Of a stretch of 64,000 nt of DNA, positions 18,001 through 21,000 are shown one piece after another; positions within the stretch are counted from its first letter, which is position 1; every line of letters begins with the position of its first letter. Made by a program: the position numbers. Source of the stretch: an uncultured Methylomirabilota bacterium (lineage in GTDB: Bacteria; Methylomirabilota; Methylomirabilia; Methylomirabilales; 2-02-FULL-66-22); NCBI GenBank assembly GCA_963845565.1, contig CAWJSJ010000006.1:1-64000 (forward strand). Reading direction: 5' to 3'.

Positions 18001-21000
18001 GCGGCGACGCGCCGAAGGGTGGGGCGCCACGCACTTGGCCACCGGCCATTATGCGCGGGTGGATCGCGAACCAGTCAGCGGACGCTATCGCCTTCGGCGC
18101 GGCGTCGACCTGCGCAAAGACCAGAGCTACTTCCTGTATGCGCTGACGCAGCAGCAATTGTCCGGCGTCCTGTTTCCGGTCGGGCATCTGACGAAGGAAG
18201 CGACCCGCCGGATTGCTCGGGAGTGCGGGCTGCCGGTGGCGGAAAAGCAGGAGAGCCAGGAGATCTGCTTCGTATCCGGGGACTACCGCGGCTACCTGCG
18301 GCAACGGGCGGGGGACGTCATCCGACCCGGGATCATTCGGGATACGGGCGGCGGGGTGCGGGGCCGACATCCGGGTGTGGCATATTTCACGGTCGGCCAG
18401 CGGCACGGGCTGGGACTCCACAACCCCTCCCCGCTCTATGTGGTGGGACTGGATGCCGCCCACGACGAGGTCATCGTGGGAGGCGGAGATGACCTCCTGC
18501 GGGACGAGGTATCCCTGGAGCAGGTCAATCTGATTGCGCTGGATGTGCTGGATGCGCCCCGACGGGTTTTGGTGAAGATCCGATACGCCCACGTCGCGGT
18601 GGCGGCGACGCTGCACCCCATCGCCCGCGGCCGCATGCGCGTTCGATTCGACGAAGCGCAGCGGGCGGTGGCCCCGGGGCAAGCCGCGGTGTTTTACGAC
18701 CCGGATGACTCCGAGATCGTCCTGGGGGGCGGGACGATCCTGGGACCGGACCCGCCGGCCGCGTGATCGCGTGCCGGACAATTCCACCCCGCACAGGAGG
18801 ACCGACATGGCGGATCCCTTTCCGGTTCGCGGCTTCATCCGACTCGCCTATGACGACTCCCGCGACCTCGTCTTCGGCCACGCCCCCAAGCCGGTTCGTG
18901 CCGGGTTCGACCTGACCATCGGAGGCGGCCAGGTCTATCCCGAGGTGAATTTCACCCTGCCGCCCATGTCGATCACCGATGCCACTTGGGCCGAGGTGCG
19001 CGGGCATTACGAGGAGATCGGTGAAGGGGTCGTGAAGCGTGCGCTGGCACTCCAGGTGCCGGGGATCGTCCTCGAGTTCGAGCTCCTGCCGCCCATGACG
19101 GATCGGCCGGAGTGGGGCGCCGAGATCACGGCCATCCTCCATCGCCACCTGGCGCGGGCGTACGCCGATCACGGCCTCCGGTCGGCGCTGCGCGCGACCA
19201 TCACCGACCTCCGGGATGAGGTCCGGCCGCCGCTGCTCCGGACCGGGGACGCCTGGGACAAGGTGAAACGCTCCTTCGAGCTCTGCGCCGACGCGGGAGC
19301 GCACATCCTCTCCATCGAGTCCGTTGGGGGGAAGGAGGTGCACGACGAGGCGCTGCTGTACGGAGACGTGCGAGGATTGGCGTTCGCGCTCGGTGTGCTC
19401 TCCTGCCGAGACATGGCCTGGTTGTGGGATCAGATCGTGGGGGTGTGTCGGGCACGGCACGGGGTGATCCCCGGCGGGGACACGGCCTGCGGCTTTGCGA
19501 ACACCGCCATGCAGCTTGCGCATCAGGGTATGCTTCCCGAGGTGCTGGCGGCCGTGGATCGAGCCATGACCGCACCGCGCAGCCTGGTGGCGTTCGCGCG
19601 GGGAGCCATCGGTCCGTCCAAGGATTGTGCGTACGAGGGGCCCGTCCTGAAAGCGATCACCGGCGCACCGATCGCCATGGAGGGGAAGTCGGCCAGCTGC
19701 GCGCACTTCAGCCCACTCGGCAATATCGCTGCCGCCATGTGCGACCTGTGGAGCAACGAGTCTGTCCAAAACGTCCGCCTGCTGTCGGGGAACGCGCCGG
19801 AGGCCTACGCCGAGCTCCTGGCATACGACTGCCGCCTGATGAACCAGGCGACAGCCCGAGGCGGCGCCTTGACGTTGCGCGACTGGCTCAGCGACTCCGA
19901 CCGGTGGCTGAGCGCGCAGGCCGCCATCCTCTCTCCCGAGGCGACCTGGGAGATCGCCCAAGCGATCGTCAACGAGACGAACGACTATCGGCGCACCGTG
20001 GCTGCAGGGATGGCCGCCGTCCGACTCCTGAAGGAAGGGACACGTTCGGGTCGGCTCGCGTTGGCCGAGGCGGAGCGGCAGTGGCTGGATCGGGCGGAAG
20101 CCGCCCTGGCCGAGCTTCCGGCCGAGGAGCACGCGCTCCTGGGCGAGATGCAGGACATATACGGGCACCTGTTCTCCCCGGCGAGTTACGGCCTGAAATC
20201 ATGATGAGCAACCATTCCCGCCTGCAGCGGGAGGACACATGGTGGTGAGCGGACCGGGTACCGATCCGCCAGGATGGGTGCGGTGTCATCGTGCACCGGC
20301 GACGCCTGATCCGTTCCGGACCGCCGCCCGCACGGGTTCTTATTAAGCCCGCATTGTTCGCGGGCTTCGTTCGCGAATAATGCGGGCTAGCCTCGACGCG
20401 GCGCGACCCCGGGAGAATTTCCTCCCGGCCGTCACCCGGCATGGCGGACCGGGGCGCGTTGCGCTACAATGCATCCATGACCGACCTGCCTCTCTCCTTG
20501 CCATGAATCTCGCCCGCCTCGCCCGCGCCCGCCCTCCGGTCGGCGGGCGAACACTCCGGGCCTTCTACACCCGCGGCTTCTGGCGCGTCTGGGCCGGTAG
20601 CATGTTCTGGTATTCTGCCCGCTGGATGGATCTGTTCGTCCTGCAGTGGCAGGTCCTGGTCATGACCGACTCCGCCTTCCAGGTGAGTCTGGTCGGCTTC
20701 TACCGGATGGCGCCCATGTTCGTCTTTGGGCTCCTCACCGGCGTGATGGCCGATCGGTTCGACCGGAGGAAGGTCCTGCTCGCCGCCCAACTCTGGAATG
20801 CCGGCGCCTCGGCCGGCATCGGCCTCCTCCTCCTCACCGGCCAATTGGCGCTCTGGCACCTGGCCGTCCTGGTGACGGCGCTGGGTTTCTCCTGGGCGCT
20901 GGACCTGCCGTCGCGACGGTCGTACATCTACGACATGATCGGCCCGCGCCGGGTGGTGAACGCCATGGCGCTGGACCACGTGGGCATGGACGGGGCCAAA

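Follow-up and report, generated by a model that had tools for sequence, protein, structure and literature searches.

An intact MtaB-family methyltransferase gene detached from its usual partners in an uncultured Methylomirabilota bacterium

The gene at 18807..20204 of the window, the whole 64-kb stretch of DNA analysed here, is a genuine MtaB-family enzyme gene that is intact and under purifying selection. It is also the sole MtaB match in a genome of 5.36 Mb that is 98.7% complete. On balance, we favour the reading that it encodes a working corrinoid methyltransferase (MT1) that acts with a separately encoded MtaC-type protein and passes its methyl group to tetrahydrofolate (THF) or homocysteine, topping up the one-carbon and methionine pool. 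In this scheme, zinc held on Glu171, Cys228 and Cys274 would activate the C-O bond of methanol, and the methyl group would be taken up by the Co(I) corrinoid of the MtaC-type protein, for which the product of C2:486536-487168 is the best candidate. The methyl-corrinoid would then be demethylated by a URO-D/MtaA-type methyltransferase with THF as the acceptor or by a stand-alone homocysteine S-methyltransferase.

The open reading frame encodes 465 amino acids on the + strand without internal stops. The first-pass annotation had described a full-length MtaB, and this holds: the protein matches Pfam PF12176 over profile positions 4-460 of 460 (532.4 bits, E 1.3e-159, where a gathering score of 25 bits suffices) and aligns through residues 9-462 to MtaB of Methanosarcina barkeri (2i2x_A; E 2.3e-92). 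Counted on this alignment, Glu171, Cys228 and Cys274 fall on residues 164, 220 and 269 of 2i2x_A, which we take to be the zinc ligands. These three columns are conserved in the window MtaB and in 105, 102 and 101 of 105 family rows, respectively, and 39 near-invariant columns of the same 105-row alignment are shared by the window MtaB and the methanogen-type rows. The available portion of a review likewise gives two Cys and one Glu as the ligands of the MtaB zinc, there with no residue numbers (PMC6257451). Methanol as the methyl donor is suggested by these conserved active-site columns. Against the NCBIfam model for the methanogen MtaB equivalog (NF040651), the protein scores 438.4 bits, below the cut-off of 720, and by sequence it is classed as a member of the family rather than as an equivalog of the methanogen enzyme. 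The ATG lies 40 nt past the mnmA stop and follows a Shine-Dalgarno-like motif (Table 1), and a start at the earlier ATG (18705) would place the gene partly inside mnmA. Scanning 18500-20500 for promoters and terminators gave no hit.

Table 1. Position and basis of the MtaB gene, its neighbours in the window and candidate partner genes on contig C2
Feature	Position	Strand	Basis or remark
metY-like gene	7700-9019	+	Cys_Met_Meta_PP, 448 bits
metX-like gene	9136-10425	+	Abhydrolase_1
metW	10362-10997	+	MetW, 150 bits
Aminotransferase	11159-12340	+	Aminotran_1_2, 212 bits
Second Cys/Met PLP enzyme	12392-13855	+	Cys_Met_Meta_PP, 141 bits
cysK-like gene	14328-15407	+	PALP, 252 bits
cysE-like gene	15575-16345	+	Hexapep and SATase_N
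Cysteine desulfurase	16479-17657	+	Aminotran_5, 282 bits
mnmA, tRNA 2-thiouridylase	17450-18766 (ORF)	+	tRNA_Me_trans, 247 bits; true start probably later
Shine-Dalgarno-like AGGAGG	18795..18800	+	Read from sequence; 6 nt before ATG at 18807
MtaB-family zinc methyltransferase gene, 465 aa	18807..20204	+	Pfam PF12176, 2i2x_A alignment
Spacer after MtaB, one copy of a dispersed ~175-nt repeat ending in a GC-rich hairpin	20205..20379	.	blastn, fold
MFS transporter	20380-21762	+	MFS_3/MFS_1; downstream of MtaB, co-directional
Lactate-permease-family transporter	21849-23402	+	Lactate_perm, 222 bits; downstream of MtaB, co-directional
MtaC-type corrinoid protein, 211 aa	C2:486536-487168		Best partner candidate
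Second MtaC-type corrinoid gene	C2:1272319-1272945		Paralogue
MtaA/CmuA-subfamily gene	C2:1479261-1480232		NF004889, TIGR01463

MtaB belongs to a co-directional row headed by the homocysteine synthesis genes metY-metX-metW (7700..10997, +). Homologues of cysK and cysE, 80-91% identical, lie directly upstream of MtaB at four related loci (L002, L003, L007 and L016), of which L016 has the order metY-metX-metW-cysK-cysE-MtaB, as in the window. The cysteine desulfurase and mnmA are also found in L002 and in L088, the locus of G009, where an MFS gene likewise lies downstream of MtaB. No corrinoid, MT2 or activase gene is found beside MtaB, nor any corrinoid gene within the 64-kb window, and MtaB is detached from its usual partners both here and in four close relatives. 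An ORF on the + strand at 23483-24859 was considered as a further conserved neighbour and rejected, since it runs antisense to a broken AcrB gene. The repeat that fills the spacer after MtaB has at least 20 near-full copies of 80-90% identity (blastn) and no Rfam or tRNA match. Because this repeat family occurs on all six contigs, contig C6, which carries MtaB, and contig C2, which carries MtaC, are taken to be of one genome, the estimated contamination of which is 6.4%. A small RNA was also rejected as the source of high RNA-library depth at 20259-20362 and 15451-15510: there is no tRNA or Rfam match, and each of the two spacers belongs to a dispersed repeat, over all copies of which the depth is summed.

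An isolated MtaB could be the stranded leftover of a broken-up operon, bereft of its activase and of any working partner and heading for decay. Such a fate is in keeping with the detachment of the gene from all partners, with the broken state of the only activase gene and with the decay of the CODH/ACS operon (both described below), which points to ongoing loss of anaerobic one-carbon genes. It also fits the patchy distribution in the genus, where MtaB is present in 8 of 20 other genomes and has been split in one (G004) and reduced to a 90-aa remnant in another (G017). We nonetheless consider it improbable, since neither the reading frame nor the start signal nor any catalytic residue is damaged, and dN/dS is 0.115 even against the closest orthologue, which is 94% identical (dS 0.27); seven further orthologue pairs give 0.12-0.22. 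In addition, the placement after cysE, apart from the usual partners, is kept in orthologues down to 74% identity, and RNA libraries of three studies contain pieces of 94-100% identity; the contigs of these libraries show presence only and not transcription, strand or level.

For the favoured reading, a working MtaB requires partners from elsewhere in the genome. The two MtaC-type corrinoid genes and the MtaA-type gene that had been proposed are indeed present (Table 1), as are 23 URO-D matches, the number reported before. Both corrinoid proteins contain the motif DLHDIG. As an MT2 of the MtaA type, the genome has the MtaA/CmuA-subfamily gene, which clears the cut-offs of NF004889 (331 bits, 244 needed) and TIGR01463 (289.5 bits, 235.4 needed) but falls short of that of the MtaA_Meth equivalog (316 bits, 400 needed). 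The product of C2:486536-487168 is the best MtaC partner candidate. In the congener G006, its 83% identical orthologue (C98:24355-24984) immediately precedes MtaB (C98:25078-26460), and at locus L009 the order is URO-D, URO-D, MtaC, MtaB, the first three being 81, 84 and 83% identical to the genome's own C2:484105-487165. A predicted complex of MtaB with this protein scored 0.77, against 0.00 for the best of three controls, and resembles the solved complex 2I2X; with such a complex already known, the high score may stem from this likeness alone and is no proof. Of 157 solved complexes, 116 came up to the same score, as did 2 of 215 mismatched pairs. Model runs shared at least 94% of contacts, the pLDDT of the partner was at least 83, and in the predicted interface the DLHDIG loop of MtaC would lie over residues adjoining Cys228. 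Orthologues of this MtaC at 76% identity or more occur in 6 of 8 MtaB-positive congeners and also in 5 of 12 that are MtaB-negative, so the corrinoid protein is not specific to MtaB; the closest relative, G009 (76% complete), shows no such orthologue. The phylogenetic profile of MtaC thus singled out no MtaB-specific corrinoid protein.

The window MtaB belongs to a large bacterial branch whose members are 59-81% identical to it and are found in Acidobacteriota, Planctomycetota and Verrucomicrobiota. Among 79 loci of this branch, an MtaC-type gene lies directly upstream in 48, RACo is present in 35 and DUF1638 in 33, and URO-D genes are frequent. The genome has its own orthologues of these operon partners (MtaC, 55 and 51% identical; two URO-D types, 54 and 50%), and together with MtaB the genes are scattered over contigs C6, C2, C5 and C1. 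A literature search found no assay of an enzyme from this branch, which leaves room for a working corrinoid MT1 that takes its methyl group not from free methanol but from some other methylated compound or small methyl ether brought in by neighbouring transporters. Related loci often include sugar or solute transporters (Sugar_tr in nine, SSF in five), the MFS and lactate-permease genes follow MtaB in the window, and the equivalog cut-off was missed. Even so, a different donor appears unlikely, as the near-invariance of the zinc ligands and of the acidic motifs around them, across methanogen-type and bacterial rows, argues for the same small substrate, and as the two transporter genes are not conserved neighbours, both being absent at this place in L002.

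The Mta set had been presented as full, and this does not stand: the sole reductive activase gene (RACo, PF14574; C2:491844-493715) is broken, as had been noted, and lies in three pieces split by an in-frame TGA and a frameshift. The CODH/ACS operon around it has decayed: ~9 kb contain at least 11 breaks, and CODH, ACS and the CFeSP subunit are fragmented. By comparison, most of the congeners searched, of which 10 of 12 have a RACo match, carry intact RACo genes with frames of 612-689 aa. In keeping with the first-pass annotation, no match at E <= 0.001 was found in the genome for FTHFS, pmoA (PF02461), PQQ alcohol dehydrogenase (TIGR03075) or PRK, and MTHFR is present. The best match to PurU reaches 67 bits against a cut-off of 286 and, together with the missing FTHFS, indicates that full oxidation via THF is not encoded. 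Thus, of the claimed use of methyl groups through THF, the MtaB, corrinoid and MtaA/URO-D components stand and the dissimilatory route is incomplete, methyl-THF having no complete path to formate/CO2 or, with CODH/ACS fragmented, to acetyl-CoA.

Taken at its fullest, the earlier reading would have these genes amount to a complete anaerobe-style, cobalamin-dependent methylotrophy, with growth on methanol and methoxylated compounds via THF as the main source of carbon and energy. The inventory of MtaB, two corrinoid proteins, the MtaA/CmuA-subfamily gene and the 23 URO-D matches agrees with this, as do MTHFR, the TRAP transporters that flank one corrinoid cluster and the occurrence of near-identical DNA in 14 wetland, sediment and soil metagenome runs. 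The broken RACo, the CODH/ACS decay, the lack of FTHFS and of an above-cut-off PurU, the scatter of the genes over four contigs and a COX1 match, which points to aerobic respiration and a respiratory, O2-capable lifestyle, make it very unlikely. Acetogen-like growth on methanol by this route is likewise unlikely, and the broken RACo and missing FTHFS and PurU make a small assimilatory methyl supply the likelier role. For that role, the corrinoid would presumably be kept reduced in a manner that does not call on an intact activase.

The supply of methyl groups to homocysteine admits a more specific form, in which the MtaB of this sub-branch would serve a methanol-fed methionine module with a corrinoid hub that passes methyl groups to a homocysteine S-methyltransferase and bypasses methyl-THF. 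This would explain why MtaB stands last in the row metY-metX-metW...cysK-cysE (window, L002, L003, L007 and L016). It would also explain the PF02574 genes in or beside MtaB corrinoid clusters, seen in G025, where MtaB shares a single cluster with RACo, DUF1638, PF02574, a corrinoid protein and two URO-D genes, and, among 79 other loci, at five that belong to Acidobacteriota, Verrucomicrobiota and a third phylum. In this genome, stand-alone PF02574 genes occur at C2:67571, C2:503619 and C6:96347, DUF1638 is present, and the stand-alone PF00809 gene found at C5:206995 may just as well be FolP. Full-length MetH is present along with three further homocysteine S-methyltransferase-domain matches. 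A precedent is offered by the glycine-betaine/methionine hub outlined for Ruegeria in the sections seen of PMC12478193, and the module is a doubtful possibility.

The host is a wetland bacterium related to nitrite-dependent methane oxidisers and is without their methane enzyme. Across the order, pmoA is present in 5 of 5 genomes of one family and in 0 of 36 in others, and its absence outside that family is therefore lineage-wide. MtaB was said to occur in 7 of 20 genomes of the genus and 8 of 250 of the phylum; the sparse spread is borne out with slightly different counts, the 8 of 20 given above and 10 of 251 phylum genomes (G000 included), limited to 2 of 68 sampled genera. Together with published precedents, this renders the claim of a second kind of one-carbon metabolism in the phylum too strong. 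Non-methanotrophic methylotrophs of the order Methylomirabilales (PMC10406867, parts seen), expression of bacterial mtaB, in operons of peat Acidobacteriota of Stordalen Mire (main text of PMC10805028, in part), and a Methylomirabilales MAG gene 51.4% identical over 459 aa to Moorella MtaB (the same paper, supplement file 5, sheet raw_BLAST_data) are already known. Surveys tend to take every member of the Methylomirabilales for a nitrite-dependent methanotroph, and a 2026 preprint, in the portion available, reads an uncultivated family of the order in this way (10.1101/2025.08.21.671631), while pmoA is found in one family. The window's genus has many corrinoid/URO-D methyl-transfer genes, with MtaB in part of its species, and this content points to wetland scavenging of methyl groups from plant-derived methanol and methoxy compounds, for which the organisms would compete with methylotrophic methanogens. 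Of wider value is the bacterial MtaB branch itself, which extends over hundreds of soil genomes.

The nearest structural model is the MtaB-MtaC complex of M. barkeri (PDB 2I2X, methanol:coenzyme M methyltransferase), with which the window gene shares the full-length Pfam family and the Glu/Cys/Cys zinc site; the protein is ~35% identical to a methanogen-type representative that itself scores 503 bits against 2i2x. Unlike the M. barkeri gene, it has no adjacent mtaC. It also sits in a bacterial genome with a COX1 match, and coenzyme M, as methanogens use it, cannot be what takes up the methyl group. Bacterial Mta systems are reportedly the subject of studies in Acetobacterium woodii and Desulfotomaculum kuznetsovii. 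In these two and in Moorella thermoacetica, a bacterial MtaB feeds THF-bound one-carbon metabolism, and the window MtaB is 50-54% identical to unnamed cluster representatives. In those three organisms, CODH/ACS and the activase are intact and the mta genes clustered, whereas here CODH/ACS and RACo have decayed and the genes are scattered.

The CmuA/CmuB chloromethane system of aerobic methylotrophs likewise transfers methyl groups to THF in a corrinoid-dependent manner. The Cmu pathway has a downstream PurU-type step, which finds no above-cut-off counterpart in this genome. CmuA is no MtaB: it fuses a URO-D-type protein to a corrinoid domain of its own; CmuA/CmuB are named among URO-D-superfamily MT1 enzymes in the part seen of PMC13222342. 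The chloromethane enzyme CdmB was considered as an MtaB relative and rejected, as it belongs to the URO-D superfamily. A further comparison is with the modular corrinoid hub, or split methionine synthase, MtgBCDE, described with a RamA-like protein and DUF1638 in the sections seen of reports on Phaeobacter inhibens (PMC5764234) and Ruegeria pomeroyi (PMC12478193). As there, the host is an aerobic bacterium that has DUF1638 and, each encoded on its own, a corrinoid protein and PF02574 homocysteine methyltransferases. In the present genome, the MT1 is MtaB and not the MttB-family MtgB, full-length MetH is also present, and the RamA-like gene is broken.

The mtaB genes of the Stordalen Mire Acidobacteriota belong to the same branch as the window gene, at 63-70% identity, and fall with it in one 26-row clade (SH-aLRT 95) of a tree made by a quick method, without a mixture model, from 48 of the 105 alignment rows, its clades labelled by PDB score, Atlas and paper supplement. 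Loci of the Stordalen type mostly follow the order MtaC-MtaB-DUF1638-RACo-URO-D, whereas the sub-branch of the window has lost this linkage and sits instead after cysK-cysE.

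The MtaB gene (the zinc methyltransferase passing methyl groups from methanol to a corrinoid protein) that the first-pass annotation had placed in the window is confirmed. Its frame is open over 465 codons, and the ATG, preceded by an AGGAGG motif, lies 40 nt past the stop of the upstream gene mnmA. The product matches the Pfam family PF12176 with 532 bits, covering positions 4-460 of the 460 in the profile, and the solved M. barkeri MtaB chain 2i2x_A over residues 9-462 (E 2.3e-92); it is the single MtaB match in the whole source genome (G000; 5.36 Mb, 6 contigs, completeness 98.7%, contamination 6.4%). 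Counted along the alignment, Glu171, Cys228 and Cys274 correspond to residues 164, 220 and 269 of 2i2x_A, which we take to be its zinc ligands. These columns are kept in 105, 102 and 101 of the 105 rows of a family alignment, where 36 further near-invariant columns are common to methanogen-type and bacterial rows. According to a review, the zinc ligands of MtaB are "two Cys and one Glu" (PMC6257451). Comparison with eight orthologues gave pairwise dN/dS values of 0.115-0.22, the lowest (at dS 0.27) being that against the 94%-identical MtaB of congener G009. The open frame, the family match, the kept zinc columns and the dN/dS values show a real and intact gene that is subject to purifying selection. 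Against the NCBIfam equivalog for methanogen MtaB, the protein scores 438 bits, below the cut-off of 720.

Coordinates of MtaB, its gene row, the corrinoid clusters and the RNA-library pieces
Feature	Contig	Position	Strand	Remarks
metY-like	C6	7700-9019		co-directional with MtaB
metX-like	C6	9136-10425		co-directional with MtaB
metW	C6	10362-10997		co-directional with MtaB
aminotransferase, then second Cys/Met PLP enzyme	C6			between metW and cysK-like
cysK-like	C6	14328-15407		co-directional with MtaB
cysE-like	C6	15575-16345		co-directional with MtaB
cysteine desulfurase, then mnmA	C6			between cysE-like and MtaB
AGGAGG	C6	18795-18800	+	precedes MtaB ATG
MtaB ORF	C6	18807-20204	+	open frame
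RNA-library piece on MtaB	C6	18859-19072		4 differences
RNA-library piece on MtaB	C6	19230-19513		16 differences
RNA-library piece on MtaB	C6	19456-19637		0 differences
RNA-library piece on MtaB	C6	19468-19624		10 differences
cluster A	C2	480-491 kb		DctP-DctQ-DctM (TRAP), URO-D 377 aa, URO-D 374 aa, corrinoid protein, URO-D 353 aa, DctM
cluster-A corrinoid protein	C2	486536-487168		211 aa
cluster B	C2	1272-1275 kb		corrinoid protein 211 aa, URO-D 402 aa, DUF1638

A word-indexed protein search with the window MtaB scored 7,999 candidates and returned 6,347 proteins at E <= 0.001, of which the best 120 are 66-98% identical to it and chiefly metagenomic, the named sources among them being Acidobacteria, Bryobacteraceae, Isosphaeraceae, Aquisphaera insulae and Rhodospirillales. 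A genome scan confirmed 222 of 236 candidate relatives (59-81% identity for the best 80 loci), and 669 matches at E <= 0.001 came from an exhaustive search through 1.84 billion representatives, with about 20 full-length representatives (34-54% identity) among the 150 matches listed. In a quick midpoint-rooted tree of 48 of the 105 alignment rows, the window MtaB falls within a 26-row clade (SH-aLRT 95) of Methylomirabilota, Acidobacteriota, Verrucomicrobiota and Planctomycetota; the methanogen-type representative P0144 (503 bits against 2i2x, 35% identity to the window MtaB) lies across the root. The ORFs of 79 loci yielding an MtaB ORF were also clustered and the clusters named by Pfam, and the resulting counts are lower bounds because many loci end at contig edges. 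In at least 48 loci about 2 bp separate MtaB from the end of a preceding corrinoid protein (B12-binding and B12-binding_2; about 214 aa), the reductive activase RACo occurs in at least 35, DUF1638 follows about 64 bp past MtaB in at least 33, and four clusters of URO-D (MtaA-type) proteins are present in at least 26, 17, 11 and 5; the typical Acidobacteriaceae order is DUF6580-MtaC-(URO-D)-MtaB-DUF1638-RACo-URO-D. Given these frequent neighbours, the bacterial branch is predicted to be a classical corrinoid methyltransferase system. Its existence in bacteria and its expression by Acidobacteriota of a peat mire are already on record in a published study (PMC10805028).

The 64-kb window contains no gene for a corrinoid protein, URO-D or RACo. 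MtaB instead closes a long co-directional row starting at a metY-like gene, set out in order in the table. Four other extracted loci (L002, L003, L007 and L016) have homologues of cysK and cysE (80-91% identity) as the immediate upstream neighbours of MtaB, with a compact metY-metX-metW-cysK-cysE-MtaB row in L016, and the congener G009 locus (L088) is like the window in having mnmA before MtaB and an MFS gene after it. The downstream MFS and lactate-permease genes are not conserved neighbours, being absent there in L002. The window MtaB belongs to a known, widespread bacterial branch and occupies an unusual, detached position.

The spacer at 20205-20379, after MtaB, and that at 15408-15574 are each a copy of a dispersed intergenic repeat about 170 nt long. 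Near-full copies of the former (80-90% identity) number at least 20 and are spread over all six contigs; the latter has more than 60 matches (68-85%). Both show depth peaks of 40-98 in RNA-library contigs, and neither an Rfam nor a tRNA match was found for them. The spread of the MtaB-side repeat over all six contigs supports the placement of C6, the contig of the window, and C2 in one genome. Elsewhere in the window, an AcrB-type RND transporter gene lies in pieces at 23489-26611 on the minus strand (ACR_tran positions 601-1020 in 23489-24841, 2-316 in 25499-26611, the middle in another frame); a plus-strand ORF at 23483-24859, without Pfam match, was rejected as an antisense artefact of it. 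The region 48500-63990, of lower G+C (0.58-0.62), holds a cell-envelope glycan locus of ordinary appearance: besides an ABC ATPase and methyltransferases, it encodes glycosyltransferases (GT2 and GT1/GT4) and a pair of YfhO-like membrane proteins about 1010 aa long. DNA near-identical to window positions 17500-21800 (at least half of words) occurs in 14 metagenome runs, which represent wetland, freshwater sediment, sediment and soil and belong to at least 10 studies; contig pieces on MtaB in four RNA libraries of three studies attest presence in the libraries only, not transcription.

Searching the genome by tblastn with operon partners from other phyla, and then by Pfam, located two corrinoid clusters, A and B, whose corrinoid proteins both carry DLHDIG. 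The genome also has orthologues of two MtaB-linked URO-D types, one on C5 (54% identity) and one on C1 (50%); the former, of the 433-aa type (C5:617745-619094, L084:4745-6094), adjoins an O-methyltransferase (Methyltransf_2) and a PCC-domain protein. Locus L009 has the order URO-D, URO-D, MtaC, MtaB, its first three products being 81, 84 and 83% identical to those of C2:484105-487165 and its MtaB 74% identical to that of the window, and in congener G006 an MtaC orthologue (83%, C98:24355-24984) lies immediately upstream of MtaB (C98:25078-26460). A complex model of the window MtaB with the cluster-A corrinoid protein scored 0.77 against 0.00 for the best control, a mark that 116 of 157 solved complexes attained, as did 2 of 215 mismatched pairs; because the 2I2X complex is already solved, this pass indicates likeness and is not proof. 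At least 94% of contacts were common to the runs, partner pLDDT was at least 83, and corrinoid-loop residues 98-103 lie against MtaB residues 229-247, beside Cys228. Gene order in L009, adjacency in G006 and the model together point to the cluster-A protein as a candidate partner. Orthologues at >=76% identity occur in 6 of 8 MtaB-positive congeners and also in 5 of 12 MtaB-negative ones, which argues against an exclusive partnership.

The sole RACo (PF14574) locus of the genome, C2:491844-493715 on the minus strand, is in three pieces: a Fer2 piece; past an in-frame TGA, a middle piece with positions 1-46 of the C-terminal domain; and, past a one-base frameshift, a piece with positions 55-260 of that domain. 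It stands at the end of a minus-strand operon (C2:491844-500800, L109) with three more broken genes, namely CODH (Prismane; at least five pieces), ACS (at least three) and a CdhD-type corrinoid Fe-S subunit (three), amounting to at least 11 breaks over about 9 kb. Next to it, the genes for TRAP, URO-D and corrinoid proteins have stayed intact, and this clustering of lesions in one operon argues for probable real decay. RACo matches occur in 10 of 12 congeners searched, mostly as open frames of 612-689 aa and in MtaB-negative genomes as well; ACS is intact in only 2 of 20 (G012 and G002). This looks like a recent loss of the Wood-Ljungdahl carbonyl branch in the lineage. G000 has MTHFR, a full-length frame for MetH and another three matches to PF02574; it has no match to FTHFS and none to PurU reaching the cut-off. 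The "full set" claimed for methanol:corrinoid methyl transfer is therefore incomplete, and the accompanying reading of complete anaerobe-style methylotrophy in this genome is very unlikely, with RACo broken, CODH/ACS decayed, FTHFS unmatched and PurU below cut-off. Acetogen-like or Cmu-like dissimilation is not encoded. A COX1 match indicates a respiratory chain. The best such match (C2:2688031-2689360) is split over two frames, at profile positions 1-361 and 357-436; a second COX1-family gene (C2:1061429-1062763) is a full-length but weaker match, and fragments with TGA stops lie at C2:382767-383891.

The reported absence of pMMO, PQQ dehydrogenase and phosphoribulokinase was borne out, PF02461, PQQ alcohol dehydrogenase and PRK being unmatched in G000. 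One family of the same order has PmoA (PF02461) in all five genomes searched, whereas the 36 remaining genomes, all 21 of the window's genus among them, gave no match, so that absent methane oxidation is a trait of the lineage. MtaB is present in 8 of the 20 other genus genomes, among which the G004 copy is split and that of G017 a 90-aa remnant; the "TGA" of the first MtaB search in G002 falls outside the family match. Across the phylum sample it occurs in 10 of 251 genomes, G000 counted (2 of 68 genera), with none in the 159 genomes of the largest family or the 20 of the pmoA-bearing family. An earlier paper already describes methylotrophs of this order that are not methanotrophic and have XoxF and the Calvin cycle (PMC10406867). 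Supplement file 5 of PMC10805028 lists a Methylomirabilales MAG gene with 51.4% identity to the MtaB of Moorella thermoacetica over 459 aa, and URO-D-type and corrinoid matches in the same MAG, none of them discussed in the text of that paper; a full-text literature search found no treatment of mtaB or corrinoid systems in Rokubacteria/Methylomirabilota.

A link to homocysteine is offered by G025, a genome of the same order and another family, whose cluster C8:8696-16553 (L106:4696-12553) runs from an intact RACo (642 aa) through a corrinoid protein gene, two of URO-D type and one for a stand-alone homocysteine S-methyltransferase (PF02574, 294 aa) to DUF1638 and MtaB, the last being convergent. 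Of 79 other loci, 5 (L004, L005, L008, L044 and L063) have a homologue of this PF02574 protein no more than 8 kb from MtaB. A Phaeobacter study describes a genetic requirement for DUF1638 and a RamA-like protein when a split MetH makes methionine (PMC5764234), and in aerobic Ruegeria a single corrinoid protein is reported to take part both in the demethylation of glycine betaine and in the synthesis of methionine (PMC12478193). These clusters and precedents, along with the position of MtaB behind the genes for homocysteine and cysteine synthesis, make a methanol-to-methionine route via MtaB worth testing, though it is rated a doubtful prospect because synteny in one genus-level lineage is weak evidence. 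The likeliest role, favoured by a little over even chances, would be a supply of methanol-derived methyl groups through a remotely encoded corrinoid protein.
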